64,000 nt of DNA. Origin: Candidatus Zambryskiibacteriota bacterium. Its GTDB lineage: Bacteria > Patescibacteriota > Minisyncoccia > Phycocordibacterales > WO2-35-19. A program made the translations under genes and the position numbers. The notes under the pieces are model-generated. The model was not told where the DNA came from, did no database searches, and saw only the letters and a list, made by a program, of their open reading frames with translations. The stretch's first letter is position 1. The number at the start of each line of letters is the position of its first letter. Location: assembly GCA_016932555.1 (NCBI GenBank), contig JAFGCQ010000004.1, positions 990 through 64,989 on the forward strand. The letters run 5' to 3'. Below, one piece after another: positions 905 to 18,666 of this stretch.

Positions 905-979
905 TGGAGCCGTTGGTGAGAATTGAACTCACGACCTACTCCTTACCATGGAGTTGCTCTGCCCCTGAGCTACAACGGC
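905..979 (-). tRNA. tRNA-Thr (anticodon GGT)
   Basis: Cloverleaf on the minus strand: acceptor GCCGTTG/CAACGGC, D stem GCTC/GAGC, anticodon stem ACTCC/GGAGT with loop ATGGTAA, T arm GTGAG-TTCAATT-CTCAC, 3' CCA encoded. Confidence 0.8.
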
Positions 980-1001: not shown

Positions 1002-1928
1002 TTATTGAATCTTGCAGACTCTTTGAAGTTCCGCTAGATCTTCTGGGGTGAGATTCAGAGAAGTTTGATTATCGCCGCTTGATAGATAATACATAATCGA
1101 ATCTGGATTATCGACATGCTCTAAACCTAGGGCGTGACCAAATTCGTGTGTTAGAGCTAATATCAAGTCTTTTTTATTGCCATATTGATAAACATTTATC
1201 TCTTGACCATTATATTCGGCTTGGTTGAACTCTAGCCCTCTATCGTATCGTTTATTATAATCTCTGGCTATTTGATTGTATTCAGATGCTTTATTGTTGC
1301 GAGTCTTTAAAAGTGTATTTAATTCAACACCCATTTGGTTTACAGCAGAAGCTTCGGTGTTTAATCTTAAAGCTTCAGAGTTTAAATAATGTCTTTCTGC
1401 TTCCAAAGATTCAAATATGGCTTGTAAGGCACCTGCCTGCGCAGGCAGGCCGCCTCTACTATTCCAATCTTGGACTTCGGCTTCATAAGCTGCTTTGCGA
1501 CTTTGAAATATAGCTAAAGCTTTTTCATAAGCGGAAACTCGGCTTTCATATTGGTTTTTAAAACTATTGAATTCCTGATCCAATTTTTTAAAAACTTCTT
1601 CAATAGCTGAAAGACCAAATTCAGTTCTCTGTTTTTGCAAGGTAGCCAGCTGTCTTTCATCGTAAACTAAATTAACCTTAAAATCGGCTCCCTCTTCGTA
1701 AGAAAAAACATTTTTATTCAAGGCCCTCTCCCAAACTTCCTCGGCTTCAAACAAATAAATTTTAAATTCAGCTTCAGTAATACCAAACTCTGTGTCAAAT
1801 CGACCAATTTCGTATTTAAGAGCCCGATCGCAAGGGTTTAAAGTCTTTTCATAAACAAAGTAGCCTGAAGCGCCGATGAGCGCCAAAAGCGCTATTATCG
1901 CCAAGCCATTTCCCAGTTTTTTTAGCAT
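1002..1928 (-). CDS. Membrane-anchored metzincin (matrixin/M10-like) zinc metalloprotease
   Basis: HEFGHALGLEH (HEXXHXXGXXH) followed by a Met-turn SIMYY. N-terminal TM helix, then coiled-coil-rich region. Confidence 0.7.
   Translation of the reverse strand: MLKKLGNGLAIIALLALIGASGYFVYEKTLNPCDRALKYEIGRFDTEFGITEAEFKIYLFEAEEVWERALNKNVFSYEEGADFKVNLVYDERQLATLQKQRTEFGLSAIEEVFKKLDQEFNSFKNQYESRVSAYEKALAIFQSRKAAYEAEVQDWNSRGGLPAQAGALQAIFESLEAERHYLNSEALRLNTEASAVNQMGVELNTLLKTRNNKASEYNQIARDYNKRYDRGLEFNQAEYNGQEINVYQYGNKKDLILALTHEFGHALGLEHVDNPDSIMYYLSSGDNQTSLNLTPEDLAELQRVCKIQ
1432..1449. repeat. GC-rich perfect palindrome CCTGCCTGCGCAGGCAGG, copy 1. It lies in-frame inside the metzincin gene and encodes LPAQAG.
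   Basis: 18-mer identical to 61389-61406. With flanks it forms a 20-nt identity, GGCCTGCCTGCGCAGGCAGG, on the coding strand. It is GC-rich in an AT-rich gene. Confidence 0.85.
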
Positions 1929-2000
1929 AAATTAAATATATCATAAAAAAGCCGCCCCAATAAAAATAATTATCAAGGCAGCTCGCTTTTAAAAATAAAA

Positions 2001-2396
2001 CTAATGCACCTCTTTGGAAAAAACAAAGGACATAAAGAAATCTTGCTGCTCTTTTCTCGCTAGAGCATCTTTGATTGCTGGCCTTAGTATCTCAGACAAG
2101 GCTTCAGCCGCTTCAATAGTAAGTAATAATTTAATTCTTCTTTTACCGCCGCGCCTCACAAGTTCCAATTGCATAGGCTCAAGCTTGCCGTTTTTTACAT
2201 CTTGCGGTCCAATTTTTTGCTGGAAGACAAGTATTAAATCACTTGAATAAACTCCAGCTGGAAATACAGATACTTGTCGGCCACCACCAAGAAATCTGCA
2301 ATAAGCCATAGGTTTTTTGAGCATGTTGAAACAGTTAAAGAATGTTTTGAGCATAAAGACCTCCTTCTGCCTTAGATAATACCCAAAATTTCGCAA
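2001..2396 (-). CDS. hypothetical protein
   Basis: 131-aa ORF with no recognisable motif. The start may be an internal Met. Confidence 0.3.
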   Translation of the reverse strand: MRNFGYYLRQKEVFMLKTFFNCFNMLKKPMAYCRFLGGGRQVSVFPAGVYSSDLILVFQQKIGPQDVKNGKLEPMQLELVRRGGKRRIKLLLTIEAAEALSEILRPAIKDALARKEQQDFFMSFVFSKEVH

Positions 2397-2415
2397 AAAA
2401 CAATCTCCAACAAAG

Positions 2416-2448
2416 AAAAAAGGAGGAGGGCTCCCCTTCTCCTTTTTG
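2416..2448. terminator. Bidirectional Rho-independent terminator-like hairpin
   Basis: AAAAAGGAG...CTCCTTTTT stem with a GC-rich loop. It is flanked by A and T runs on both strands. Confidence 0.5.
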
Positions 2449-2646
2449 AGTGTGGTCTAATATTTTTTACCTTGACACAGACTACTTGTCCTGAGTTGAG
2501 CCGAAGGAGTGGTTTACTATGAGCCTGTCGAATAGACGATGCCCGCCACGTGATAAATTGTGTAGCAATTTATTTTACGTGGTTAGAACTGCAATTATGA
2601 GTAACCACACGCATTTTCCTGAAATAATTTATGCTAAAATAACTTC

Positions 2647-3129
2647 ATGAAGAAAATCAATATTTATATTGATGGAAATAATCTTTATCGCAGTGCCAAA
2701 GAACTCGGATTTGAAATTGATTATAAAAAATTTAGAGGCTGGCTTCGCCAAAAATACAATCCGCAATTTGTTTATCTTTTCATAGGTCTCGTTCCAGAAA
2801 GGGCAAAATTCTATGAATATTTGCAAAAATCAGGGTTTATTTTGGTTTTCAAACAAACCGTATCGGTTGGAGAAAAAATAAAGGGAAATTGCGATGCAGA
2901 ATTAGTGTTAAAAACCACTTCTGATTTTTATACCAAAGCTTTTGATTCCTGTATTTTAATAACAGGAGATGGGGATTTCGGCTGTTTGGTAGAATTCTTG
3001 CAAGAAAATAAATCGATGAATCGTGTTATAGCTCCCGATGAAAATAAATGCTCTTTTTTATTAAGAAATAAAAATGTTGAGATAACATTCTTAAACGACC
3101 ACTACCACAAGTTTTCTAAAAAGATATAA
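2647..3129 (+). CDS. NYN-domain (LabA-like / DUF88) predicted nuclease
   Basis: IYIDGNNLY ... NCDAELVLK ... ITGDGDFGCLVEFL pattern typical of NYN/LabA domains. Confidence 0.6.
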   Translation: MKKINIYIDGNNLYRSAKELGFEIDYKKFRGWLRQKYNPQFVYLFIGLVPERAKFYEYLQKSGFILVFKQTVSVGEKIKGNCDAELVLKTTSDFYTKAFDSCILITGDGDFGCLVEFLQENKSMNRVIAPDENKCSFLLRNKNVEITFLNDHYHKFSKKI

Positions 3130-3258
3130 AAGAAAAAGCCCCCGGTGCAGACGAATCTACACAAGGGTCTTTTTCATAGTGATACCTAGAGTATATACCT
3201 AAAAAAATATCTGTCAAGCAAAGTTGTGGATGATGTTAGAACTGATATATTAAAAAGA

Positions 3259-3293
3259 AAAAGCCCGTTGATATTATCTCTGGGCTTTGTTTA
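3259..3293. terminator. Rho-independent terminator-like hairpin (AAAAGCCC-loop-GGGCTTTGTTT)
   Basis: GC stem flanked by A/T runs, between the convergent NYN gene and ORF 3334-3705. Confidence 0.5.
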
Positions 3294-3333
3294 CCGAGAA
3301 GAGTTTTTAACCCAATCCTCCTCGCCCTTAACT

Positions 3334-3705
3334 TCATGCAGGGCTTTGAACACTGAGTGTTGAGTATATGTTTTCCAGAGATATTCGGTTTTCTATCCCT
3401 GCTGCACCAGGAGCATCTGCACTTCCACGAATTTCAGGATGCTGATAATGCCAGTTGCGAGTCCATTCTTTGTCAGTCTCAACAATAACTGCATCAACTG
3501 GTATTCCATGTTCTTTAGCAAAGACAAAAATACTCGCTACAGCAATCTGACCGTTCAAACAGAATGCTTTATTTCCCAAGTATTCAATAACCTGTTCAGC
3601 GTTATTGTTCAGATTCTGGCGCAAATAAAAATAAGAGTATTTTGGTGAAATATTCGTTGGCGCGACCGATGGGATTTGGTCAGGAATATCCCACCCTTCA
3701 GTCAA
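3334..3705 (-). CDS. Hypothetical protein, GC-richer than its surroundings. Possibly horizontally acquired or a gene remnant.
   Basis: 123-aa ORF with local GC near 50 percent against about 33 percent background. Its 5' end overlaps a partial duplicate of the tRNA-Asp 3' end. No recognisable family. Confidence 0.35.
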   Translation of the reverse strand: MTEGWDIPDQIPSVAPTNISPKYSYFYLRQNLNNNAEQVIEYLGNKAFCLNGQIAVASIFVFAKEHGIPVDAVIVETDKEWTRNWHYQHPEIRGSADAPGAAGIENRISLENIYSTLSVQSPA

Positions 3706-3862
3706 GGGCGGGATTTCACGACCCTGGCTCGCCTGTTTTGATTGCTATCAAAACATAGCTGTGCCTTTCAAGTCACCAACGCAAGCCAGAGCAGTCTGGC
3801 TTGCTTCTGTTCCGAGCATAGACACAAAAATCACTAGCAGAAACTAGTGATTTTTGGTCTTG

Positions 3863-3937
3863 CGCGACCGATGGGACTTGAACCCACAACCTCCCGCGTG
3901 ACAGGCGGGTGCTCTAACCAAGTTGAGCTACGATCGC
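3863..3937 (-). tRNA. tRNA-Asp (anticodon GTC)
   Basis: Acceptor GCGATCG/CGGTCGC, D arm GCTC..GAGC, anticodon stem CCCGC/GCGGG with loop CTGTCAC, T arm GTGGG-TTCAAGT-CCCAT. CCA is not encoded. Two hairpins follow on the minus strand. Confidence 0.8.
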
Positions 3938-4052
3938 ATTTTTATATATTTTTCAAAAATCTCTCTTTTCCTTTTTAGAAATAATTTTGAAAAACCTATC
4001 CTATTATACATAAAATCATAGAGTTTTAAAGACCCTATGCTATAATTTAAAC

Positions 4053-4256
4053 ATGCAACCAGAAGAACAAAATAAAATAGCCGAACTAGAGGCTAAGATT
4101 GACGCAATTTATAAGTCAGTCGAGAAAACTCGTAAAATAATGCTTTGGACGAGCATAATTACTGCAGCAGTCATCATTTTGCCACTAATCGGGCTCTTAT
4201 TCGTGATACCTTCGTTTATAGATTCTTACACTACTGCTCTAGACGGCCTTCTGTAA
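4053..4256 (+). CDS. Small membrane protein (one TM helix), hypothetical
   Basis: 67-aa ORF with a C-terminal hydrophobic helix. A TATAAT box ends only 6-7 nt upstream of the ATG, suggesting a leaderless transcript. Confidence 0.4.
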   Translation: MQPEEQNKIAELEAKIDAIYKSVEKTRKIMLWTSIITAAVIILPLIGLLFVIPSFIDSYTTALDGLL

Positions 4257-4467
4257 GCTTATTCCTCATTTCTATAATCATAGTAGTAAACCAAGTTAAG
4301 AAAGAAGCCAGGCCAACAACAAAAAAAGTTAGAACATATTGCATGATAGTGTTTGGCCCTTGAGATGACTGCTCCATAGGGCCCCAAATAGCTATGAGCA
4401 TGAGAATAGCGGTAATCACCATGCAGGAAAGGAATATTCTTAATGTGGCTTTTTGTAATTTGCGCAT
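4231..4467 (-). CDS. Small membrane protein (two TM helices), hypothetical
   Basis: 78-aa ORF, convergent with 4053-4256 and overlapping its end. Confidence 0.35.
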   Translation of the reverse strand: MRKLQKATLRIFLSCMVITAILMLIAIWGPMEQSSQGPNTIMQYVLTFFVVGLASFLTWFTTMIIEMRNKLTEGRLEQ

Positions 4468-4542
4468 ATTTTATTAAATTATTTTTAATGGCTTGTCATG
4501 TGGGACGTGAATTTGCGAAGTGAATTTTTACGTTCTTTACGT

Positions 4543-4618
4543 GGTGCCGACGATTGGACTCGAACCAATGACCTGGCGCTTATGAAACACCCGCTCTAAC
4601 CACCTGAGCTACGTCGGC
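4543..4618 (-). tRNA. tRNA with CAT anticodon. Elongator Met or Ile2-lysidine type, not initiator.
   Basis: Acceptor GCCGACG/CGTCGGC, D arm GCTC-AGGTGGTT-AGAGC, anticodon loop TTCATAA, T arm ATTGG-TTCGAGT-CCAAT, CCA encoded. No GGG/CCC in the anticodon stem, so not initiator. Confidence 0.75.
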
Positions 4619-4716
4619 AATATATCCTTAAATTATCCACATTTTTGGTCATTTTGCAAAGCTTTGTTTCTTAATTTTTTTATGGTAAACTGCAATTTAC
4701 AGATTGGTTTTGTTAT

Positions 4717-4787
4717 TGCGGGGTAGAGTAATAGTAACTCGCAAGGCTCATAACCTTGAAATTTTGGTGCAAATCCAAACTCCGCAA
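4717..4787 (+). tRNA. Second CAT-anticodon tRNA or tRNA-like. Atypical T-loop TGCAAAT. Possibly tRNA-Ile2 or Met, or a pseudo-tRNA.
   Basis: Cloverleaf: acceptor TGCGGGG/CTCCGCA (7 bp, one GU), D stem GAGT/ACTC, anticodon stem CAAGG/CCTTG with loop CTCATAA, T stem TTTGG/CCAAA. Position 55 is G, which is unusual. A terminator hairpin follows at about 4836-4865. Confidence 0.5.
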
Positions 4788-4922
4788 CCGCGTAAAAGAA
4801 TTGCTGCGCAATTCTCACGCGGCTGCGCCAGCAAGCCGAGTGAACAAAAACACCCATGTTGGGTGTTTTTGTTTTAAGCGAGCCACGTTATGAGCGATAG
4901 CAAATTTTACATGGCCATGATT

Positions 4923-5597
4923 TTAAATAAGATAAAACTCTTTAAAGACCGCTTCATAGAGGGAGATGATGCGGCGAATTTCACGCTGATTGACCAAAAA
5001 ATCGTTGCCTTCGTGAGCAATCTTATTGCGCGCTTTATGAGCTTCCCAGGCTAAGTCTATGGTTACAAAATCGCTTTTTTCTACAACTTTCATTTTGTCT
5101 GCCATTGTGTCACCTGGCAGTTTAAGTTTTTCCAAGAGTTCATCAAGCATGATATCAGCTTCTATGATAGCAAGTCTCCAATCTGAAGAGTTTTCTGATT
5201 CTGAAAGTTTTACAATTCTTTCCCATTTTTCATTTTTTTTATCTTTACTTGAACTTTCCATTGGAATATTTGCTAGCATATCTGATGGATAAACTTTAGC
5301 TCTTTCTTCCCGTGAGATTCGATTCCATTTCTGGGTGAATACATAAGCAGCAAACATAGCAAAAAGAGCAATAATTAAACTAAGGATTTTCCACCAAAAA
5401 GCAGTGGATTTAAAGAAAGCTATTATACCAACTAGTTTAATACCATAAAAAGAAATTTCTCCAGAAATAAAATAATTTATGATATTTGGCACTATAGCGC
5501 CGACAATAGCGGTCAAAAATAAAAGTACTACCGTCATTTCTACAGCATCAAAATTCCAACCCTCTAACCAACTCTCTGATTCTTTGTCATTATTCAT
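4923..5597 (-). CDS. Membrane-anchored protein with a C-terminal DUF4145/HEPN-like domain
   Basis: Three N-terminal TM helices. The C-terminal region GDTMADKMKVV...LAWEAHKARNKIAHEGNDF fits the DUF4145/HEPN Rx4H signature. Confidence 0.5.
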   Translation of the reverse strand: MNNDKESESWLEGWNFDAVEMTVVLLFLTAIVGAIVPNIINYFISGEISFYGIKLVGIIAFFKSTAFWWKILSLIIALFAMFAAYVFTQKWNRISREERAKVYPSDMLANIPMESSSKDKKNEKWERIVKLSESENSSDWRLAIIEADIMLDELLEKLKLPGDTMADKMKVVEKSDFVTIDLAWEAHKARNKIAHEGNDFLVNQREIRRIISLYEAVFKEFYLI

Positions 5598-5609
5598 ATT
5601 TTAAAATTA

Positions 5610-7079
5610 TTAAGTTGTCTCTCCCAGAAAATTTTTGCCAATTTCGAATAAAACATTTTCATTGCCATGAGCAGACATAAGTTGTATGCCAATCGGCAGA
5701 TCTTTGTCATTTATTTTAGCAAATCCAGACGGGATCGAAATAGCGGGTATGCCGGCGATATTAGCTGTAACCGTAAAAATATCAGCCAGATAATTTTCTA
5801 AGGGGCTAGTTTTTTCTCCTATCTTCCAGGCTGGTGTCGGAGCCGTCGGAGTTAAAACTACATTTACTTCATTAAAAGCTTTATTGAATTCATTCTTAAT
5901 AACTTCTCTAGCTGCCATAGCTTTGCCATAATAAGCGTCATAATAGCCGGCTGAGAGCACGTAGGTGCCAAGTATAATCCGCCTTCGTACTTCCGGACCT
6001 AAGCCTTCACCCCTAGTTTTTTTGTAAACTTCCATCAGATTACTTGTCCTGAGCGGAGTCGAAGGGTTGCCGTCCAAAGATAAACCGTATTTGATACCAT
6101 CATATCTGGCCATATTTGATGAGACTTCTGCCGGCATAATTATGTAATAAATAGTGAGTGATTTGTCTATATTTGGTAGTTTAATATCTTTAATTTCAAA
6201 ACCCAAATTTTTTAATTTTTCTACTGATTCTTCAAAATTTTCTTTCACTTCTCTCGAAATACCATCCTGCTCAAGTAAATGATAAGGCACGCCGATTCTT
6301 AAATCCCGAGATGAATCTTGGAGTGACCCGACCGATTTGCCGTCATGGCGGACAGGAATATGCGAAGTGCTATCATACTTGTCCTGACCTTTTATAACAT
6401 TAAAAATTATTTCAGCATCAGCAACTGATTTAGTGATAGGTCCTATTACATCAAGAGATGACCCCATGGCCATAAGGCCATAGCGAGATACGCTGCCGTA
6501 AGTTGGCTTCAACCCTACACAGCCACAAAAGCTGGCTGGTTCCCTGATTGAACCACCCGTATCCGATCCTAAGGCTCCTAGAGCCATATTAGCCGCTACA
6601 GCGGCCGCAGAGCCACCAGAAGAGCCACCAGCTACTTTTTCCGGATCATGGGGATTTCTGGTCACTCCAAACGCTGAATTCTCGGTAGAGCCACCCATAG
6701 CGAATTCATCCATATTGGTTCTGCCTATAAATATTCCATTTTGTTCAAGAATTTTCTTCGCTGCAGTAGCTGTGTATGTCGCTTTGTAATTTTCTAAAAT
6801 CTTAGAAGCAGCGCTGGCCTTCTTGCCTTTTATTAAAATATTATCCTTTATAGCTAAAGGTATACCGGTTAAATCTTTGGAATCGCCTTGATCAATGATT
6901 TTTTGAGCCAATTTGGCTTGCTCTAAAATATCATCATAAACTTCCAAATAAATATTAAGTTCTTTATTTTTATCTTCAATCTGCAGAAGGGCACCTTCTG
7001 TAAGTTCTTTAGCCGAAATCTCTTTGCTATCTAGCAATTTTCTCGCTTCTTTAATTGTCAAATCTTCTATTTGTGTCAT
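5610..7079 (-). CDS. gatA: Asp-tRNA(Asn)/Glu-tRNA(Gln) amidotransferase subunit A
   Basis: Amidase signature GGSSGGSAAAVAANMALGALGSDTGGSIREPASFCG. 489 aa. Confidence 0.9.
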   Translation of the reverse strand: MTQIEDLTIKEARKLLDSKEISAKELTEGALLQIEDKNKELNIYLEVYDDILEQAKLAQKIIDQGDSKDLTGIPLAIKDNILIKGKKASAASKILENYKATYTATAAKKILEQNGIFIGRTNMDEFAMGGSTENSAFGVTRNPHDPEKVAGGSSGGSAAAVAANMALGALGSDTGGSIREPASFCGCVGLKPTYGSVSRYGLMAMGSSLDVIGPITKSVADAEIIFNVIKGQDKYDSTSHIPVRHDGKSVGSLQDSSRDLRIGVPYHLLEQDGISREVKENFEESVEKLKNLGFEIKDIKLPNIDKSLTIYYIIMPAEVSSNMARYDGIKYGLSLDGNPSTPLRTSNLMEVYKKTRGEGLGPEVRRRIILGTYVLSAGYYDAYYGKAMAAREVIKNEFNKAFNEVNVVLTPTAPTPAWKIGEKTSPLENYLADIFTVTANIAGIPAISIPSGFAKINDKDLPIGIQLMSAHGNENVLFEIGKNFLGETT

Positions 7080-7107: not shown

Positions 7108-7395
7108 TTAAAGTATTTTTTTGACTTTCAAATAATCGCCTTCTCTCTCCGGAAATTCTCCAATGAGCTCTTCTCTACTATCAGGCTTCTCCGGATCAGA
7201 TTCGTCTTCACGCATTACATTTCGAATTTGATTTTCATCAAATTCGTCCCGCGAAGCTTTAGTGAAGTGGGAAATCTGGCCTATATAATCCAAAATGTCA
7301 TCAATTTCGGTACTGAGTTTCTCTATTTCTTTTTCGGTCATCTCTATCCTCGCCAAATCGGCCAGCTTTTTTATGTCTTCTTTAGAAATGCTCAT
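7108..7395 (-). CDS. gatC: Asp-tRNA(Asn)/Glu-tRNA(Gln) amidotransferase subunit C
   Basis: 95-aa GatC-like protein immediately upstream of gatA. Confidence 0.8.
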   Translation of the reverse strand: MSISKEDIKKLADLARIEMTEKEIEKLSTEIDDILDYIGQISHFTKASRDEFDENQIRNVMREDESDPEKPDSREELIGEFPEREGDYLKVKKIL

Positions 7396-7415: not shown

Positions 7416-10052
<2,637 letters not shown>

Positions 10053-10065
<13 letters not shown>

Positions 10066-10628
10066 TTTATTAGATAAGTTTTTAACATAACATTCCTAGT
10101 TTCAGAGCCTTTAGTGTAATAAACCCATACTGTGACTTCTATTTCTCTCCCATTGGGTAATTCTTCAATTTGAATTTTTCTATTAAAAGTGGTACTGTTC
10201 CCACCTAAGGATTGACTATAAATAAATTGGGCATTTTGTTGTAAATTTGGGCAATTTCCGGCTGGGCAAAGTACTAAATCCAATGTCCCATTAGAATTTA
10301 CATTAGCTCGGCAAAATTGACCCGTAGAACAATCAGCAGCTCCCGTTATTCCATCCAGCCAATTGCCTCCTCCACCATTTATTATTTTAAGTTGATTTGA
10401 ATCTCTTATGTTCCTCACTATCTCCATACCTTCTTGAGCTAAATAAAAAGCGGTAATTTCATCTTTAGCTATAATATTTTGGGACAAGCTCTGCCTGACT
10501 GCTCCAAAAACTGCAGTGATGGCGAGAGTGACAGCTAATATAGCCACTATGGCTTCAAGCACTGTAAAACCACCCTGCGGATTTATATTGAATATTGAAT
10601 ATTGAATATTGAATATTTTTTTAATCAT
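10053..10628 (-). CDS. Type IV minor pilin (prepilin-type N-terminal cleavage/methylation domain)
   Basis: GGFTVLEAIVAILAV prepilin motif. A 7-bp tandem repeat lies in its leader-peptide coding region. Confidence 0.7.
10585..10616. repeat. Heptanucleotide tandem repeat (ATATTGA/TATTGAA) x about 4.5, inside the 5' coding region of the minor pilin gene
   Basis: The + strand reads atattgaatattgaatattgaatattgaatatt. It encodes IFNIQYSIFNI of the prepilin leader. The unit length is not a multiple of 3. Confidence 0.85.
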
Positions 10629-10632
10629 AATT

Positions 10633-11268
10633 TTATAAATCCAAAGTTCTCCTAGAAGCTACAGTCTGCAATGAAAATTCGGTTTTAGTGGTTGCATCTT
10701 CTCCGACATGGCCTTTTACGACAATGAGTACGTATGGTTGAATATCATCACCAGGATTACTACCATAAACATAAAATTTTAAATCATCAATGATGGCTTC
10801 TTGTGAAGTAATTCTTTCAAAATCTCCTCCATTGTAAGATTTTTCAATAGAATGTTTAATATCATTAAATTTATATTGTACTCTGACATTATTTGTTAAA
10901 TCGGTATCATAAAAAGTCACTGACAGCGTCCCACTTCCATCATTGTTAATATTGCAATCGCCCACATCAGGATCCGGACTGAGAGCACAATCATAATTTT
11001 TGCCAAACTTTATAATCCTGGCCATGTCTTCAACTACAATATTTAAATTGTCCACTACTGTCTTAGATGTCCTAGACTTTCGGTTAGCATCAATGATACT
11101 AATAATAGATCCAGCAGAAATAGCCACTACTAAAAGAAATAAAGTAATAGCTACCGTCATCTCTATCAGAGTAAAGCCCGCCCGCTTCGCAGGAATTTTC
11201 AATTTCCGATTTCCAATTTTCAATTTATTTCTCATAATTTTATTGTACTGAGACTTGACCGCTAGCAT
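10633..11268 (-). CDS. Type IV minor pilin (prepilin-type)
   Basis: KRAGFTLIEMTVAITLFLLVV motif. Confidence 0.7.
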   Translation of the reverse strand: MLAVKSQYNKIMRNKLKIGNRKLKIPAKRAGFTLIEMTVAITLFLLVVAISAGSIISIIDANRKSRTSKTVVDNLNIVVEDMARIIKFGKNYDCALSPDPDVGDCNINNDGSGTLSVTFYDTDLTNNVRVQYKFNDIKHSIEKSYNGGDFERITSQEAIIDDLKFYVYGSNPGDDIQPYVLIVVKGHVGEDATTKTEFSLQTVASRRTLDL

Positions 11269-11860
11269 CTACCGTTATGAGAGAAGTTTTACTCCCACCT
11301 GCAGATTGCAAAGTAATTTTTACTGGTGGAAAATCTTTATCAATTCCTCCAACATTGGTTAAAAGAATTTTTGCTGCAGTATCAGGCCTAAAAAACCGAA
11401 TATCTGCTTGAAACAAAGATCCACCGCCTTCAAAACACCAATTTTTTACAGAACCACAAACGTCCTTAATTGTTATTCCCTTATCAAATTTTGTTGTTTC
11501 GATTTCTTCCCCTGCATCATATTTTTCATTATGATTTTTATCTGCATAAAAAATATATTTATCAGATAAACCTTGTCTCATATAAATCCCATACCCCACA
11601 TTAAAAATATCCCCCGCCACACCTAGTTGGCCTTTTACGCCTAAACTATAAATTTGAGCTTGGCGAATCATTAAAGCTAATTCATAAGCTTCGGTATTTA
11701 CAGCCAACTGTTCATCCCATTGCCTTTGTTGCATCACAAAAACAGTTATAATAATCATCGCTATAGATATAGAGACCAAAAGTTCTATCAGAGTAAAACC
11801 TCCACTTCGCTGAAGCTTCACAGGATAAGCTATTTTTAATTTTAAATTTTTAAAAAACAT
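11240..11860 (-). CDS. Type IV minor pilin (prepilin-type)
   Basis: SGGFTLIELLVSISIAMIIITV motif. Confidence 0.7.
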   Translation of the reverse strand: MFFKNLKLKIAYPVKLQRSGGFTLIELLVSISIAMIIITVFVMQQRQWDEQLAVNTEAYELALMIRQAQIYSLGVKGQLGVAGDIFNVGYGIYMRQGLSDKYIFYADKNHNEKYDAGEEIETTKFDKGITIKDVCGSVKNWCFEGGGSLFQADIRFFRPDTAAKILLTNVGGIDKDFPPVKITLQSAGGSKTSLITVDASGQVSVQ

Positions 11861-12722
11861 TTAAGAGAAATTTAATCTGAAAAATATCCAGATTTAATAA
11901 AAAGCTCAAAATAATTCCCAAAGAAAGGAAAGGGCCGAAGGGAATTTCAGATTTAATTGTAAAATTATTACTGAAAAGGGGCAAGTTTATATGTGATTTA
12001 ATTTTCTTAATTAATAAAACTAAAACTGAAAAAACCGCTCCTATCCAAAAAGCCAAAATTATCGCCGATAATCCCATCGCCGGCCCCAAGAAAAAACCTA
12101 AAACCGCTATGTATTTAACATCACCAAAACCGAACCAACGTCCTTTGGATATGAGAAATATTAACAGAAATGGGAGAGCCAGAATAATGCCCGTTACTAA
12201 ATTAAACAAGATTGCAGGCAAGCTTAGAGCTAAAAGCTTAAAGCTTAGAGCAAAAACAAAAAAGGCGATAAGAAAAGCGTCGGGGATAATAAAATGTTTG
12301 AGATCGTAAATAGAAATAAGTAAAATAATCGAAAATAAAGCCGTAATCAAAAGAAAACTAATTCCCATCTCTAAGCTCCAAGCTCTAAGCTCTAAGCTTA
12401 AAAAACCTGTCTCAAACGCCACTAAGACAACTAGAATACCCATGATTATCTCTATAATTATTGCCGATATTGGTATTTTAGCTTGACAGTATCGACATCT
12501 ACCTTTCAAAAATAAAAAAGAAAAAATGGGAAACAAATCTTTATTTTTAAGTTTAGTATTGCAAGAAAAACAAATTGAACGGCCCTTAAAAAAAGGTAAA
12601 CCCGTATTATACCGATCTGCTATAACACCCACAAAACTTCCTAAAGCAGTTCCAAATAGAAATATGACAACATCCCACAAATATAACATTTTTTTATAAT
12701 CATACCATCTCGGCTCTCTCAA
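11850..12722 (-). CDS. pilD: Prepilin peptidase (A24 family)
   Basis: CRYC zinc-binding motif, GFGDVKY active-site region, multiple TM helices. 290 aa. Confidence 0.85.
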   Translation of the reverse strand: MREPRWYDYKKMLYLWDVVIFLFGTALGSFVGVIADRYNTGLPFFKGRSICFSCNTKLKNKDLFPIFSFLFLKGRCRYCQAKIPISAIIIEIIMGILVVLVAFETGFLSLELRAWSLEMGISFLLITALFSIILLISIYDLKHFIIPDAFLIAFFVFALSFKLLALSLPAILFNLVTGIILALPFLLIFLISKGRWFGFGDVKYIAVLGFFLGPAMGLSAIILAFWIGAVFSVLVLLIKKIKSHINLPLFSNNFTIKSEIPFGPFLSLGIILSFLLNLDIFQIKFLLNVF

Positions 12723-12840
12723 ATCTATATGTCAAAGGCAATCTTTAAAATGCTTTGATAATTTTAATTCTTCTTTTATAACACAAAACCCCGCGTATGC
12801 GGAGTTTTGTACCCAAATTTTCTAAATAATTATGTAGTGA

Positions 12841-13302
12841 TTATGGATTGTTACAAGTAACATCACCATCGGGCTGGATAGCGTCTTGCTGTTTTGATGC
12901 TCCACTGCTATCTATGCACCAATACTTGCCACTCTGAGAAAGCAAGTTAGCCGATACTGCATAAGCGGGGGCTGCAGTGGTAACACATTTAAGTGTTACA
13001 CCGGTTGGGAACGAGTCTGTTCTTGTATAAGGGGTCAGAACCGCATCGGCAAACATAGCAAGAGCTGGCGCGCCGTCATTACATGCAGGATCATTTCCTG
13101 CAGCACCATAATTCCCATTAGTATCGTAATAAAGTTCTGCAGCTGCTCTTATACCAGAAAGCTGGGCTTTGACTTTAGCATCATTACCTCTACTTCGAGC
13201 AGTATTAAGTGAAGCTAAAACAACTGAGGAAAGAATACCAATAATAGCGATAACAACTAGAAGTTCGATAAGCGTAAAACCTTTATTTTTTAATTTAGAC
13301 AT
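12841..13302 (-). CDS. pilA: Type IV major pilin (PilA-like)
   Basis: KGFTLIELLVVIAIIGILSSVVLASLNTAR N-terminus and C-terminal Cys pair. A terminator-like hairpin lies downstream at about 12783-12806. Confidence 0.85.
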   Translation of the reverse strand: MSKLKNKGFTLIELLVVIAIIGILSSVVLASLNTARSRGNDAKVKAQLSGIRAAAELYYDTNGNYGAAGNDPACNDGAPALAMFADAVLTPYTRTDSFPTGVTLKCVTTAAPAYAVSANLLSQSGKYWCIDSSGASKQQDAIQPDGDVTCNNP

Positions 13303-13325
13303 AATTTTAAAAATAAACTAATTAA

Positions 13326-13343
13326 TTCTCTCTCGAGAGAGAA
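13326..13343. promoter_or_regulatory. Perfect 18-bp palindrome TTCTCTCTCGAGAGAGAA between the two tandem pilin genes. Hairpin terminator or operator.
   Basis: The sequence is exactly self-complementary. It lies about 23 nt upstream of the pilA start and downstream of the second pilin gene. Confidence 0.5.
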
Positions 13344-13431
13344 GCTTGTGTATTATCGACCAATCAAGCTTTACTTATATTATATAAAACTCTCATATTT
13401 TGTTAAATAATATGTGGATAACACTAATAAT

Positions 13432-13878
13432 TTAAGGACAAGAAGTGACAGGACCTCCTATTTCTTCACTTATTACTCTAGAAGCACCTCGGTTATCAAC
13501 ACAATAATACTCATTACCAGAATATAGAGTAGCTTTTACAGCGTAATCAACACTATTGGCTCTACATCTTATTTCTGTAAAATCAGGTAGATTGCCAGCA
13601 GCAATTAAAATACCGGGTTTACCATTATTTGGATCAAAATCATTAAATATACCCTGACTACAATTGTTTGCATCGCTGTAGTTACCATTATTAGCATAAT
13701 ACATACTAGCCGCTGTTCGAAATTGGCTTAGTTGGCTTTTTATTTGAGTATCATAAGCTCTTTCTCTTGATTTGGAAAGACTATTTAAAATAACTGAAGC
13801 AATGATGCCTATGATAGTTATAGATATCAGTAATTCAATTAAAGAAAAACCCTCTGAAAAATTTGAATTTTTAAACAT
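13432..13878 (-). CDS. Type IV pilin paralog (PilA-like)
   Basis: EGFSLIELLISITIIGIIASVILNSLSKSR N-terminus and C-terminal cysteines. Confidence 0.8.
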   Translation of the reverse strand: MFKNSNFSEGFSLIELLISITIIGIIASVILNSLSKSRERAYDTQIKSQLSQFRTAASMYYANNGNYSDANNCSQGIFNDFDPNNGKPGILIAAGNLPDFTEIRCRANSVDYAVKATLYSGNEYYCVDNRGASRVISEEIGGPVTSCP

Positions 13879-13885
13879 ATTTTTA

Positions 13886-15094
13886 TCATATACCCGAAGC
13901 GATATTGTAAATCGGCATAAGCACCGAGGCTAACAAAACACCGACTCCAACGCCAAGCATCACGATCATTATCGGCTCAATCATACTTACCAAAGTATCA
14001 ACTGCTGCCATAACTTCTCTCTGATAGAATTTGGACATAGTTTTCATAATATTTCCCAACTCCCCAGTTTCTTCACCCACTTTTATCATTTGAGTAAGTA
14101 TATTGGGAATTTCTTCATTATCTTTCAAAGAAGCGGAAAGGGGTTGCCCGCCTCTTATTTTAATTTCTGCTTCTTCTAATATTTCTTTATATACTTCATT
14201 ATCTATAACTGAAGCAGTAACTTGAATGGCTTTTAACATTGGAATACCCGAAAGCACCATGGTGCTTAAGTTATCAGAAAAACGTGATAAATAAAGTTTG
14301 CGATATAAGTCGCCGACATAGGGTATGTAAAGTCTAGCGTTTGATATCCATCTCTTGCCCTCCTTAGTAGTACCATACCAAAACAGACCGCCAATTAAAG
14401 CAATTAGTCCAAAAACCATATACATCCAATAAGCGACAAAAAAATCACTTACCCAAAATACAATTTGAGTATAAAACGGCACTTCTTGAGCCGATTCTTT
14501 GATTATCAGGCCAATTTTCGGCACTATCACTGTAAACATGATGACCATAACTGCGATAAAGGTAAAGATAATAAAAGCCGGATATATGAGAGCATGTTTA
14601 GCTTTAGAACTAACTTCATAAGTACGATCTAAGTAATCAGCCAAGAATGAAAAAACTTGATCGAGATGTCCTGATTCTTCTCCTGATTTGACCATATTAA
14701 TATAGAAATTGGAGAAAACTTCGGGATGTTTAGAGAGAGCACCTGATATTGAAGATCCTGATTGTAAGTCATCAACTATTTGCAGTAAATGTTTTTTCAA
14801 AGCTGGATTTTCACTTTCGGTACCAAGTAATTTAAAAACTTTCAGAGCAGAAACCTGAGCCTCAAAAAGAGTGGACATCTGGCGAGATAATATGACAATT
14901 TCTCTATTGGAAACTTTGTTAAAAAAGGGAATTCTTTTGAGAATATCGCCATCACCTTCTTCTATTGGCTTTATTGAAGAAATAATTAAGCCTCTGTTTT
15001 GCAATGCAGAGATAGCGGCTTCCATACTGAAAGCTTCTACTTCACCTTCTTGTTTGATACCATTTCTATTAATTGTTTTATACGAAAAAAGCAT
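13886..15094 (-). CDS. pilC: Type IV pilus assembly inner-membrane platform protein (GspF/PilC family)
   Basis: 402 aa with two GspF repeats and three TM segments. Confidence 0.85.
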   Translation of the reverse strand: MLFSYKTINRNGIKQEGEVEAFSMEAAISALQNRGLIISSIKPIEEGDGDILKRIPFFNKVSNREIVILSRQMSTLFEAQVSALKVFKLLGTESENPALKKHLLQIVDDLQSGSSISGALSKHPEVFSNFYINMVKSGEESGHLDQVFSFLADYLDRTYEVSSKAKHALIYPAFIIFTFIAVMVIMFTVIVPKIGLIIKESAQEVPFYTQIVFWVSDFFVAYWMYMVFGLIALIGGLFWYGTTKEGKRWISNARLYIPYVGDLYRKLYLSRFSDNLSTMVLSGIPMLKAIQVTASVIDNEVYKEILEEAEIKIRGGQPLSASLKDNEEIPNILTQMIKVGEETGELGNIMKTMSKFYQREVMAAVDTLVSMIEPIMIVMLGVGVGVLLASVLMPIYNIASGI

Positions 15095-15097
15095 AGA

Positions 15098-16147
15098 TTA
15101 CAACATCTTTTCCAAAACATTTGGATTACTTGAGTAAAGGAAAGCGTTTTCTACACTGATATCTCCTTTATTTACCAGATTTACTAAACATCTATTAAAA
15201 TCAATCATACCCTCTTCCGAGCTAGTTTCTATCACAGTGTTTATCTCATGAGTTCTTTTATCTCGAACAAGATTTGCCACTGCTGTGTTGTTTATAAGAA
15301 GCTCATAGGCTGGTATTAAGCCCCCAGATATTCTTGGGATCAATCTTTGAGAAAAAATTCCAGATAAGGAGCTAGCTAATTGCAAGCGAATTTGGTTTTG
15401 TTGTTTAGAATCAAATGAGTCAATGATACGATCAACTGTTTGAGCGGCGTTATTAGTGTGTAGAGTCGAAAATACTAGGTGTCCAGTCTCAGCTGCTGAA
15501 ACTGCGGTAGCCATAGTTTCAGCGTCCCTCATTTCACCAACCATAATAACATTTACATCTGCCCTAAAAGAATCTCTAAGAGCCAAATTAAACCCTGGGG
15601 TATCTATACCGATTTCTCTTTGGTGAATAATAGACTTCTTAGGTGTAAATAAGTATTCTATTGGATCTTCTATGGTAATTATATTTTCCAATCTTTCGCC
15701 ATTTATAAGTTCAATTAAAGAAGCTAAGGTGGTAGATTTACCATGACCTGTAGGACCAACTACTAAAAAGAAACCTGATTTTAATCTAGCGAAGTTTTCT
15801 AAAGCTTTGGGTAGATTCAAATCAGATATAGAGAGTATTTCTTTGGGAATATGGCGAAGGCTTAAACAAATTCTTTTTTGTTCAACATAAACATGCACTC
15901 GAAATCTTTCTTTATTGTGTTCATAGGATACGTCAGCACTTTTCCTTTCCAGAAAAGATTTTTTCTTGGATTCTGAAAGTATTTTATCTAAAATGCTCTC
16001 TATGATTTCTCTAGAGAATTTTTCAATTTTGGAAATGGGCATTAAATGGCTGGCCACTCTAATATAGGGAATTCGACCTTCAGAAATGTGCAAATCAGAA
16101 GCTCCTTCTTTAACTAAAATTTCAATTAAATTGTCTAAATAATTCAT
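15098..16147 (-). CDS. pilT: Twitching-motility / pilus retraction ATPase
   Basis: Walker A GPTGHGKSTTLASLIE and the PilT-type Asp box. 349 aa. Confidence 0.85.
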   Translation of the reverse strand: MNYLDNLIEILVKEGASDLHISEGRIPYIRVASHLMPISKIEKFSREIIESILDKILSESKKKSFLERKSADVSYEHNKERFRVHVYVEQKRICLSLRHIPKEILSISDLNLPKALENFARLKSGFFLVVGPTGHGKSTTLASLIELINGERLENIITIEDPIEYLFTPKKSIIHQREIGIDTPGFNLALRDSFRADVNVIMVGEMRDAETMATAVSAAETGHLVFSTLHTNNAAQTVDRIIDSFDSKQQNQIRLQLASSLSGIFSQRLIPRISGGLIPAYELLINNTAVANLVRDKRTHEINTVIETSSEEGMIDFNRCLVNLVNKGDISVENAFLYSSNPNVLEKML

Positions 16148-16149
16148 AA

Positions 16150-16548
16150 TTAATTTTTTGAATTTTTAATAATTCTCATAGTTTCTTCGACTACTTCAAG
16201 GGGCGTAGCAGCGGATTTAATAATATAAGCAGCAACACCTAATTCTTTAGATATATTAATGTCTTCTTCATTGTTTTGGTTAGTGAGCATTACTATCGGA
16301 ATACCCTCTCCCAACTTCTCTTTTCTCATCTTTTTTAGAGCCTCTATACCGCTCATATCAGACATAACTATATCTAAAAGGATAAGATCGGCTTGCAATC
16401 CTGATTTAAGTTTTTCTATGAAAGAAGTTCCCGAGTTGCAAGCCTCAACTTCAACACCAGAGTTATTAAACTTAGTAACATACATATTAACCAAAAAATC
16501 ATCGTCATCAACTAATATTATTTTGTATTTTTTCTCTTCATTAGTCAT
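16150..16548 (-). CDS. CheY-like receiver-domain response regulator (PilH/PilG-like), embedded in the pilus cluster
   Basis: ILVDDDDF...DLILLDIVMSDMSG...K pattern. 132 aa with no output domain. Confidence 0.7.
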   Translation of the reverse strand: MTNEEKKYKIILVDDDDFLVNMYVTKFNNSGVEVEACNSGTSFIEKLKSGLQADLILLDIVMSDMSGIEALKKMRKEKLGEGIPIVMLTNQNNEEDINISKELGVAAYIIKSAATPLEVVEETMRIIKNSKN

Positions 16549-16596
16549 ATTTTTATATTGTTTATATTATATATTGAACTCATAAATACCACCATC

Positions 16597-18360: not shown

Positions 18361-18372
18361 AACAAAATGCGA

Positions 18373-18666
18373 CTAAAAATTAGAAAATGGGTTATCGCGA
18401 CCGACTGGTATTGATATTAGGGGGGTAGCTATACTTTTTAGCGATTCAAATTTTTCATTTATTATTATATCCATATCAAAACTTACCACTTCAATTTGAT
18501 CTAATAAACTTTCCATTCTTTGGCTAGCTGTAACATTTTCATCAATAAGCAACGCCTCCTCTTGATCAGGCATATACATTACTTTATAAGCAATAACAAG
18601 AAGTCCGATGAGAATTATCAGCATAATCTGTGTTCGTATTTTGCTTTTTGCTTTTTGGTCAGCCAT
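18373..18666 (-). CDS. Small pilus-cluster membrane protein (PilP-like?), hypothetical
   Basis: 97 aa with an N-terminal TM helix, lying between pilB and the PilO-like gene. Confidence 0.35.
   Translation of the reverse strand: MADQKAKSKIRTQIMLIILIGLLVIAYKVMYMPDQEEALLIDENVTASQRMESLLDQIEVVSFDMDIIINEKFESLKSIATPLISIPVGRDNPFSNF

Follow-up and report, generated by a model that had tools for sequence, protein, structure and literature searches.

Patescibacteria, which belong to the candidate phyla radiation (CPR), are tiny and largely uncultured symbionts. Very few regulatory RNAs have been described for them, and many of their lineage-specific genes have no assigned function. Among toxin–antitoxin (TA) systems, type I loci with 3′-overlapping, convergent antisense RNAs are represented by TxpA/RatA and BsrG/SR4 of B. 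subtilis, and type I systems with nuclease toxins by SymE/SymR and RalR/RalA. Type III (ToxIN-like) systems combine an endoribonuclease with a small structured RNA. For the LabA-like NYN proteins (NYN.COG1432), the available text of one survey reports no member with a demonstrated nuclease function, and gene neighborhoods that suggest tRNA or rRNA processing (Matelska et al. 2017, PMC5499597). The available portion of a HEPN survey (Anantharaman et al. 2013, PMC3710099) lists DUF4145-like HEPN proteins with transmembrane (TM) and SH3 segments, predicts that membrane HEPNs are cytoplasmic and degrade RNA at the membrane in a stimulus-dependent manner, and takes the RNxxxH motif as the mark of active RNases. 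Here, we analyzed positions 2001–5597 of a 64-kb stretch of DNA (64,000 nucleotides, called the window below; mean GC content 35.1%) from a Zambryskibacteria genome. This region contains the gene of a membrane-anchored HEPN protein, and an NYN gene that faces a predicted small-RNA gene.

A preliminary description had interpreted the region as a single accessory islet around tRNA genes, with possible defense or toxin content. Our comparisons favor another interpretation. The reference for separating backbone from insertions was L008, another Zambryskibacteria and the closest relative covering the whole region. By blastn, the two sequences have in common an M10 peptidase gene, the NYN cassette, tRNA-Asp, a small membrane-protein gene (mini67), two tRNA genes with a CAT anticodon, the HEPN gene, and gatA. 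Specific to the window are the segments 1930–2610, 3255–3860, and 4257–4540, which carry a hypothetical open reading frame (ORF117), an orphan open reading frame (ORF), and a second small membrane ORF (mini78), respectively. This strain-specific DNA totals about 1.5 kb in three pieces. Our preferred reading, to which we assign a probability of about 0.55, is that 2001–5597 is a mosaic of mostly conserved chromosome and three small insertions rather than a defense island, with the HEPN gene belonging to the gatCA backbone and the NYN gene forming a cassette with its RNA.

The HEPN gene and its operon comprise the following features; gatA, gatC, and ligA were named from the Pfam labels of their orthologs in relatives.

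4923–5597, minus strand: HEPN gene (JW740_00195), 224 aa, two TM segments and a C-terminal HEPN domain, predicted to be cytoplasmic, at residues ~117–220
5610–7079, minus strand: gatA, conserved operon
7108–7395, minus strand: gatC, conserved operon
7416–9488, minus strand: ligA, conserved operon
4843–4873, no strand: perfect 14-bp inverted repeat with T/A runs on either side, by its sequence likely a bidirectional terminator

The HEPN gene starts 12 nt after the gatA stop codon and is the last gene of the ligA–gatC–gatA operon. We compared its context in 11 sequences (the window, L001, L003, L005, L008, L170, L171, L172, L173, L174, and L175). It lay directly downstream of gatC–gatA on the same strand in all 11, with a gap to gatA of 0–50 nt in ten contexts and of 147 nt in L175. 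Wherever the contig reached that far, ligA was found upstream. Longer forms of the protein with SH3 repeats (607 and 387 aa) were also encoded directly behind gatC–gatA. This fixed position therefore marks the HEPN gene as a core operon gene and not an accessory one, a conclusion that we hold with high confidence. The inverted repeat at 4843–4873 is likely to end both the operon and the plus-strand tRNA gene on its other side. The fixed linkage to genes of a tRNA-dependent amidotransferase suggests a translation-related RNA as the substrate of the HEPN protein. If true, it would imply an envelope-coupled RNase that acts on tRNA or translation. The invariant linkage offers a testable hypothesis for a large family of ~2,500 clusters of membrane HEPN proteins, which are otherwise usually read as defense toxins.

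The 224-aa protein is 100% identical to JW740_00195 of a Candidatus Zambryskibacteria metagenome-assembled genome, which assigns the window to Patescibacteria. Its hydropathy profile shows two strong TM segments. The protein has the four-helix up-and-down bundle common to solved HEPN domains and contains the motif R190-N191-x3-H195 (RNxxxH). Residues R190, N191, and H195 were invariant in 37 homologs, and RNxxAH was present in 18 of 18 diverse family members. Taken together, the fold and the invariant residues therefore support a membrane-anchored HEPN protein with an Rx4H motif, as the preliminary description had proposed; the Pfam family label that it attached, DUF4145, found no support. The family is large, with at least 651 full-length homologs, mostly 53–66% identical and all unannotated, and at E ≤ 1e-3, a profile of the C-terminal domain retrieved 2,503 clusters defined at 50% identity. 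The HEPN domain was always C-terminal, and the lengths ranged from 126 to 698 aa among the best 150 members listed. Long members consist of a K-rich N-terminus, TM1, SH3_3/GW/Tudor-like repeats, TM2, and the HEPN domain. They thus show the "TM and SH3" architecture of the survey, a likeness in architecture only and not in clade membership.

Two considerations, the positive-inside rule and the binding of SH3/GW repeats to the cell wall, would place the variable segment between TM1 and TM2 on the external side of the membrane and the HEPN domain on the cytoplasmic side. The 224-aa protein would then run from a cytoplasmic N-terminus through TM1, a short outside loop, and TM2 to a HEPN domain in the cytoplasm whose RNxxxH motif is intact, and SH3/GW cell-wall-binding repeats would replace the short loop in the long relatives. 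Such a protein would most likely be a housekeeping or envelope-signal-gated RNase, or an RNA-binding module, at the inner face of the membrane. As a cytoplasm-facing, membrane-tethered RNase, it would be expressed constitutively together with gatCA, and its outside segment may gate it.

The closest described relatives in design are the DUF4145-like membrane HEPNs, as far as the available portion of the survey covers them (PMC3710099). Both have a C-terminal, TM-anchored HEPN domain with an Rx4-6H motif that is predicted to be cytoplasmic, both are predicted to cleave RNA at the inner membrane face upon a signal, and the "TM and SH3" listing is matched by the long relatives of the window protein. 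The window protein differs in that the Pfam DUF4145 model does not score it, and in having, in this genome, two TM helices joined by no more than a short outside loop, and no TM of the WP-signature type. It is also fixed in a housekeeping ligA–gatCA operon of CPR, an arrangement that the available portion of PMC3710099 does not mention. The same logic of a membrane sensor with a cytoplasmic HEPN RNase is described there for eukaryotic membrane HEPN RNases of the Ire1/RNase L (KEN-domain) and C6orf70 types. The window protein is bacterial, lacks a kinase domain, and has no homology to these beyond the HEPN fold; activation by dimerization, as in the Ire1/RNase L type, is for this protein an analogy only.

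Several results speak against this view of the HEPN gene. Searched with the full protein, Pfam returned no DUF4145 or HEPN model at E ≤ 1, and none of 19 isolated C-terminal domains matched DUF4145 (PF13643) at E ≤ 10. The sole Pfam match among these domains was HEPN_RiboL-PSP, in one member (E 0.13). None of 120 homologs carried a precomputed Pfam domain, searches of NCBIfam, PADLOC, and PDB sequences (by profile) were empty for the 224-aa protein, and Foldseek gave no significant match in the PDB, with three HEPN entries among generic bundles. The link between the HEPN gene and gatCA could also be mere operon hitch-hiking. Finally, gatB was not found among the ORFs of at least 400 aa in the 64-kb window.

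In most bacteria, gatB follows gatA, and the HEPN gene occupies this slot in all 11 contexts. The missing gatB and the constant position would both suit a HEPN domain that is not a nuclease: an RNA-, nucleotide-, or protein-binding module, comparable to the HEPN-like substrate-binding domains of nucleotidyltransferases, which would serve as a membrane tether or accessory of GatCA. We consider this rather unlikely. The R, N, and H residues of RNxxxH are invariant across the family, and this motif marks active RNases in the available portion of PMC3710099. The protein has no sequence or fold similarity to GatB, and gatB may simply sit elsewhere in the genome.

Two observations concern gatA itself. 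In L170 (3489–4951), the gene is split into two ORFs of 329 and 154 aa, which would reflect a frameshift, a pseudogene, or an assembly error. A 45-nt direct repeat with 76% identity (core ACTTGTCCTGAG..GAG.CGAAGG) has one copy at 6021–6065, inside gatA, where it encodes ...GNPSTPLRTSNL..., and the other at 2463–2507, intergenic and upstream of the NYN gene. The repeat could be due to chance or be a fragment of gatA-like DNA.

The second subject of the preferred reading is the NYN gene with its RNA, for which the features are as follows.

2612–3254, no strand: conserved NYN + RNA cassette, 89.8% nt identity to L008 by blastn, compared with 69–72% for the flanking core genes
2632–2640, plus strand: extended −10 promoter (TGC TAAAAT) whose end lies 6 nt upstream of the ATG of the NYN gene; no Shine-Dalgarno sequence
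2647–3129, plus strand: NYN/LabA-like (COG1432-type) nuclease, 160 aa, predicted to be catalytically active
3125–3217, minus strand: predicted small-RNA gene convergent with the NYN gene, encoding an RNA of ~60 nt, with promoter, hairpin, and U-tail

The NYN protein matched PF01936 with an E value of 4.3e-16 and 60.2 bits (gathering cutoff 24.2), over profile positions 1–126 of 145, and all 120 listed homologs carried the same domain. The acidic residues D9, D83, E85, D93, D108, and D110, which include the catalytic ones, were at least 97% conserved in 82 distinct sequences. The protein is soluble, with no TM segment. About 992 homolog clusters were found, and the top 120 showed 80–93% identity across several classes of Patescibacteria. 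Between the window and L008, the ratio of nonsynonymous to synonymous divergence (dN/dS) of the NYN gene was 0.03. Its dS was 0.64, whereas the values for three flanking core genes (HEPN, gatA, and M10 peptidase) were 1.5–2.3. These low values point to strong purifying selection, together with either a more recent shared ancestry than that of the host genomes or an extra constraint on synonymous sites. Apart from L008, no conserved neighbors of the NYN gene were found across 42 genome loci. In 42 genomes, DNA conservation reached from 35 nt upstream to ~90–125 nt downstream of the NYN gene, and DNA similarity continued past its stop codon in every case, by ~55–125 nt. The arrangement TGnTAnAAT-N6-8-start, with no Shine-Dalgarno sequence, was seen in most of 78 NYN loci. 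With an extended −10 element only 6–8 nt before the start codon and no Shine-Dalgarno sequence, a leaderless NYN mRNA is therefore predicted.

The window protein resembles the LabA-like NYN.COG1432 proteins (PF01936), as described in the available text of PMC5499597, in being a single-domain protein with conserved acidic residues and a Pfam score above threshold. It differs from them in the unusual conservation of its subfamily across Patescibacteria classes, in its monocistronic gene with a predicted leaderless mRNA, and in the convergent small-RNA gene that abuts it in every case. The available text of PMC5499597 makes no mention of an RNA partner for a LabA-like NYN.

The promoter of the predicted RNA consists of a −35 box TTGACA (3217–3212) and a −10 box TATACT (3195–3190) with a 16-nt spacer, and its predicted start lies at ~3185–3183. 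With 11 of 12 matching positions, it was the best promoter match in 1900–5700. The RNA would begin with the single-stranded leader AUCACUAUG, continue with an 18-bp hairpin (3175–3132) capped by a UUCG loop, and end in a U-tail at ~3125. The window contains one copy of it. Across 40 aligned loci, both promoter boxes (TTGAC and TAnnnT) were conserved, and the 16–18-nt spacer between them was not; ~7 nt past the −10 box followed a conserved 9-nt leader (ATCACTATG), the 18-bp hairpin, and a T-run. RNAalifold detected compensatory changes in 8 of the 18 pairs, and unpaired cells in one pair only (2 U-U of 40). All five covariation measures exceeded 500 of 500 shuffles, and pairing fell to 40–66% in the controls with slid partners.

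These data also identify the strand. On the minus strand, 718 of 720 cells were paired (99.7%), including 93 G-U pairs, as compared with 625 of 720 (86.8%) on the plus strand. UNCG loops were found on the minus strand in 38 of the 40 loci. The minus strand was chosen because the 93 G-U pairs become C-A mismatches on the plus strand, and because the UNCG loops exist on the minus strand only. A selected minus-strand RNA element coupled to the NYN gene is, in our judgment, highly probable, and it would be expressed as a ~60-nt species. Another account would dispense with a functional RNA: the hairpin would be the bidirectional terminator of the NYN gene, and the facing promoter a transcriptional insulator, an interference device, or a source of abortive by-products. 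The A-tract, hairpin, and T-tract do have the form of a classic bidirectional terminator, and most cells can still pair in the plus-strand version. This account does not explain the selection on the minus-strand RNA, the conservation of the promoter boxes and the 9-nt leader across classes, far above background, or the survival of the unit after NYN deletion described below; it seems improbable to us.

Rfam release 15 gave no match for 3125–3220 or 3334–3860 at E ≤ 1, and only tRNAs reached the gathering score in the region; no description of the NYN-linked RNA was found in the searchable literature. A tiny coding gene (MKKTLV followed by a stop codon) was considered and rejected for this element. 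Several loci have ACG or ATA in place of its ATG, and the position of the stop codon varies with the covariation of the stem. The RNA would be an apparently undescribed small RNA family found throughout Patescibacteria, and its addition to RNA family databases could improve the annotation of CPR genomes.

The linkage between gene and RNA was followed from both sides. The NYN-seeded genome set contained 39 distinct contexts and L033 (L031 is cut by the contig end), and the RNA was present in all 39 and in L033. The RNA-seeded set was collected with a pattern for the hairpin alone, which left the promoter unconstrained, and comprised at least 120 metagenomic stretches; the NYN status could be determined in 92 contexts. 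Among these, 58 had an intact NYN gene, 20 a degraded one, and 14 none. The degraded genes were truncated, frameshifted, or reduced to remnants, down to the last 16–34 codons. Both sets together indicate that the NYN gene never occurs without the RNA, while the RNA often outlives the NYN gene (34 of 92). The mean number of matches to the 12 promoter positions was 10.05 with an intact NYN gene, 9.6 with a degraded one, and 9.4 with none, compared with 6.7 for random background. Across loci, the RNA ended 3–20 nt from the NYN stop codon. In the window, this distance is 3–5 nt, and the two transcripts are therefore expected to share a bidirectional terminator and to have complementary 3′ ends.

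Three observations on the loci collected may be added. The same convergent RNA, here with the leader variant ATCACCACG, accompanies a divergent NYN subfamily that is 41–48% identical to the window protein (L056, L068, L076, L078, L085, and L121). The pairing of RNA and NYN therefore predates that split. In L058 (8900–9800), the complete NYN + RNA unit occurs in tandem with a period of 683 nt and 99.7% identity; both NYN copies are intact, and the RNA gene is likewise present twice. This duplication could be an assembly artifact. Near NYN-less or remnant RNA units in L116 and L134, at distances of 70 and 768 nt, there are ORFs resembling Y1 transposases of the IS200/RAYT type (recognized by the sequence motif MPNH.HL only), which hint at a route by which the neighborhoods may have been reshuffled.

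According to the model that we propose, the NYN gene and the RNA would form a self-contained cassette of ~640 bp. An extended −10 promoter would drive a leaderless NYN mRNA, and the facing consensus sigma-70 promoter would drive the ~60-nt RNA with its 9-nt leader, 18-bp UNCG hairpin, and U-tail. The RNA may restrain the nuclease by antisense pairing, following type I TA logic, or by binding to the protein, following type III logic. We put the chance of such restraint slightly below even.

In common with the 3′-overlapping type I TA systems, the NYN and RNA genes converge, with a shared terminator and complementary 3′ ends: a predicted convergent RNA gene with its own promoter and terminator overlaps the 3′ end of the NYN transcript. 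The protein is never found without the RNA, orphan RNAs and RNAs beside decayed NYN genes are tolerated, and the unit is compact, mobile, and autonomous. The cassette lacks one defining type I feature because its putative toxin, a soluble NYN nuclease of 160 aa, is not a small hydrophobic membrane peptide. It further differs in an overlap limited to the terminator hairpin, in a UNCG loop instead of a U-turn, and in a conservation far above that usual for TA loci; NYN toxicity is putative. With type III (ToxIN-like) systems, the cassette has in common an endoribonuclease gene and a small structured RNA that might bind and inhibit the protein. Here, the RNA has no tandem repeats, lies downstream and convergent rather than upstream and co-directional, and the toxin fold differs.

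The support for a TA system is weak, and the following observations weigh against it. The RNA promoter is mostly kept where the NYN gene is gone, with few decayed copies, which fits an independent function of the RNA equally well. UNCG loops make poor starting points for antisense pairing. The NYN gene is conserved to a degree and over an age that are unusual for toxins. Pairing of the RNA leader with the NYN start region was examined and rejected, since the leader variants showed no convincing covariation with the start codon or its context. The neighbors of the RNA also provide no help. Where the NYN gene is absent, the convergent neighbors include Fic (twice), HicA, a DUF84 NTPase, a PaaX/Cas2-like protein, and, by our own motif reading, a 2H-phosphoesterase-like ORF. 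Fic and HicA might have pointed to a general antitoxin role, but we rejected this, as both carry their own antidotes: the HicA neighbor has a HicB-like ORF upstream, and the Fic neighbor has its own inhibitory SxxxEN motif. These neighbors therefore show only that the RNA resides in regions of gene flux. Lastly, the RNase activity of both the NYN and the HEPN proteins is a prediction from sequence, and the same applies to the RNA with its start site and to the lack of a leader in the NYN mRNA.

The UNCG loop, the promoter retained in NYN-less loci, and the extreme conservation keep alive a further explanation, in which the RNA is no antidote. It would be an independent housekeeping or regulatory RNA of Patescibacteria, and the NYN protein an ancestral, losable partner, such as a processing enzyme or a subunit of a ribonucleoprotein. 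This would agree with a largely intact promoter in the 34 contexts that have no intact NYN gene, with a primary sequence conserved beyond the needs of pairing, and with the single copy in the window. The very strong purifying selection and old divergence of the NYN protein, atypical of toxins, would fit as well. It leaves unexplained why the RNA gene always converges on and abuts the NYN stop codon, why a housekeeping partner should so frequently become a pseudogene, and why the whole unit was duplicated in tandem; no trans target of the RNA is known. We regard this explanation as possible but unlikely.

Two things may be new, although we would wager against the pair if pressed. One is the cassette as a new class of RNA-controlled nuclease module, be it a TA-like pair with an NYN toxin or an NYN–RNA ribonucleoprotein. 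The other is a two-TM HEPN RNase that would have become established in Paceibacteria-type CPR as gene number four of the gatCA operon. Found in more than 100 independent contigs, the RNA together with the NYN gene represents a concrete, testable RNA–protein module for Patescibacteria.

The remaining conserved part of the region is the tRNA block with mini67. All tRNA genes were located by tRNA scans.

905–979, minus strand: tRNA-Thr
3862–3937, minus strand: tRNA-Asp (GTC), with a terminator-like hairpin at 3828–3858, downstream on its strand
4053–4256, plus strand: mini67 (JW740_00180), small protein with one TM segment (27–60)
4542–4618, minus strand: tRNA with a CAT anticodon, conserved in L001, L003, L005, L008, and L172
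4717–4789, plus strand: tRNA with a CAT anticodon, 94.7% nt identity to L008

The order HEPN gene, tRNA-CAT on the opposite strand, tRNA-CAT, and tRNA-Asp recurs in L001, L003, L005, L008, and L172. One tRNA-Met is kept in L170 and in L175, and none in L171 and L174. Located between tRNA-CAT and tRNA-Asp, mini67 has counterparts at this position in relatives, with 70% identity in L001/L002 and 61% in L008; in L172, a 68-aa ORF occupies it. The recurrence of the tRNA order and of mini67 therefore assigns them to the backbone of the lineage and not to accessory DNA; the cluster of tRNA-CAT, tRNA-CAT, mini67, and tRNA-Asp would be ancestral in this lineage. In the plus-strand CAT tRNA (4717–4789), the end pair is U1-A72, and the anticodon stem reads AAGG/CCUU in place of the three G-C pairs typical of bacterial initiators.

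The three insertions contain the following features.

2001–2354, minus strand: ORF117 (JW740_00160), hypothetical protein with a strong Shine-Dalgarno sequence (AAGGAGG) 6 nt upstream of the ATG
3334–3705, minus strand: orphan ORF (JW740_00170), a strain-specific insertion that belongs to a rare protein family
3660–3678, no strand: att-like direct repeat of the tRNA-Asp 3′ end, an 18/19 copy of 3862–3880 inside the 5′ end of the orphan ORF
4231–4467, minus strand: mini78 (JW740_00185), putative two-TM ORF, a strain-specific singleton cluster

ORF117 formed a singleton cluster, was absent from L008 and all other loci compared, and had no Pfam, PADLOC, NCBIfam, PHROGs, or viral match. Its 131-aa version with a TTG start is probably too long; the 117-aa form is the annotated one. 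No match to mini78 was found in any locus compared, and at its position in L008 the gap between mini67 and the tRNA measures only 42 nt. The orphan ORF has seven homologs, in short and ~180-aa forms, with the motif RNWxYQHPxIxGxADAPGxA...NIYS, and these sit in unrelated contexts. A structured RNA (RNase P, tmRNA, or similar) was considered for 3334–3860 and rejected, as no Rfam match at the gathering score or at E ≤ 1 and no tmRNA by ARAGORN was found, and protein homologs exist instead. A phage origin of ORF117, the orphan ORF, or the NYN gene was likewise rejected; the three had no relatives on viral contigs and no meaningful match in PHROGs.

The copy of the tRNA-Asp 3′ end is found downstream of the tRNA gene, at a distance of 202 nt. 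It had no other match with up to four mismatches in the 64 kb, and ~1e-4 such matches are expected by chance per window. The segment beside it (3255–3860) is absent from L008. The repeat thus reads as the classic scar of site-specific integration into a tRNA gene, and the orphan ORF insertion would adjoin the copy that the integrating element left behind. Like tRNA-linked islets with att duplication, the window has a direct repeat of a tRNA 3′ end beside strain-specific DNA. It differs from them in having no integrase and only ~0.6 kb of foreign DNA left, and resembles a scar rather than an active island; no ORF in 2001–5597 matched an integrase or recombinase family. In two relatives, type II toxin genes are found just after the HEPN gene and tRNA block: PemK in L001 (9751–10137), and YafQ with a DUF6364 partner in L172 (6524–7058). 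TA genes have therefore landed repeatedly in the DNA downstream of the backbone, and a hot spot beyond the backbone genes is a reasonable idea.

With these results in hand, the claims of the preliminary description can be judged. Its individual features were mostly correct. The NYN domain at 2647–3129, tRNA-Thr, tRNA-Asp, and the two CAT tRNAs were all recovered, and so were the two convergent mini membrane ORFs, mini67 and mini78, which overlap by 26 nt and have predicted TM segments in each. The GC-rich orphan ORF exists as well; its enrichment is modest (41.4%, compared with 35.1% for the window and 39.7% for gatA). The Pfam searches that it had proposed upheld the NYN assignment and returned no HEPN or DUF4145 model. 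The suggested tRNA-linked integration hotspot agrees with the tRNA-Asp repeat and with PemK and YafQ in relatives, and is at odds with the lack of an integrase and the conservation of the HEPN/tRNA block. Synteny divided the region: ORF117, the orphan ORF, and mini78 are variable, while the HEPN gene and the tRNA block keep the same order in relatives, an outcome that the description itself had named as refuting. The small RNA that faces the NYN gene did not figure in it.

The domains were rightly named and the biological frame was wrong; a defense islet is not supported. As first conceived, the whole of 2001–5597 would be an accessory, tRNA-associated islet, with the HEPN and NYN RNases as effectors of abortive infection or toxins. 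It can draw on the real HEPN fold and NYN domain, on the tRNA-Asp repeat, on the TA genes at the same place in relatives, and on PADLOC, in which single NYN models matched (PADLOC-DB v2; PDLC01154, 1.7e-11, and HEC-09, 7.7e-6). The same scan gave no complete system and nothing significant for the other five ORFs of 2001–5597, and PHROGs, viral contigs, and integrase families likewise contributed nothing. The fixed place of the HEPN gene behind gatCA and the presence of the tRNA trio and mini67 in close relatives largely refute a single islet, and strain-specific DNA is confined to its three small pieces. We consider this interpretation very improbable. HEPN or NYN domains beside tRNA genes should not be scored as defense islands without a synteny check.

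Two observations on the wider window complete the picture. Type IV pilus/type II secretion genes lie upstream of ligA, at 9500–18400 in the window and at 1–4100 in L001, L003, and L005, where they are syntenic. This stretch has T2SSF and T2SSE in the window, and a prepilin peptidase and N_methyl pilins in the relatives. The synteny of these genes therefore identifies the whole neighborhood as conserved chromosome. The window also encodes RNase Y (membrane-anchored, KH + HD domains; 51477–53006, plus strand) and a beta-CASP/RNase J-like enzyme (53096–54535, minus strand), so that conventional RNA-decay enzymes are present alongside the HEPN and NYN proteins.

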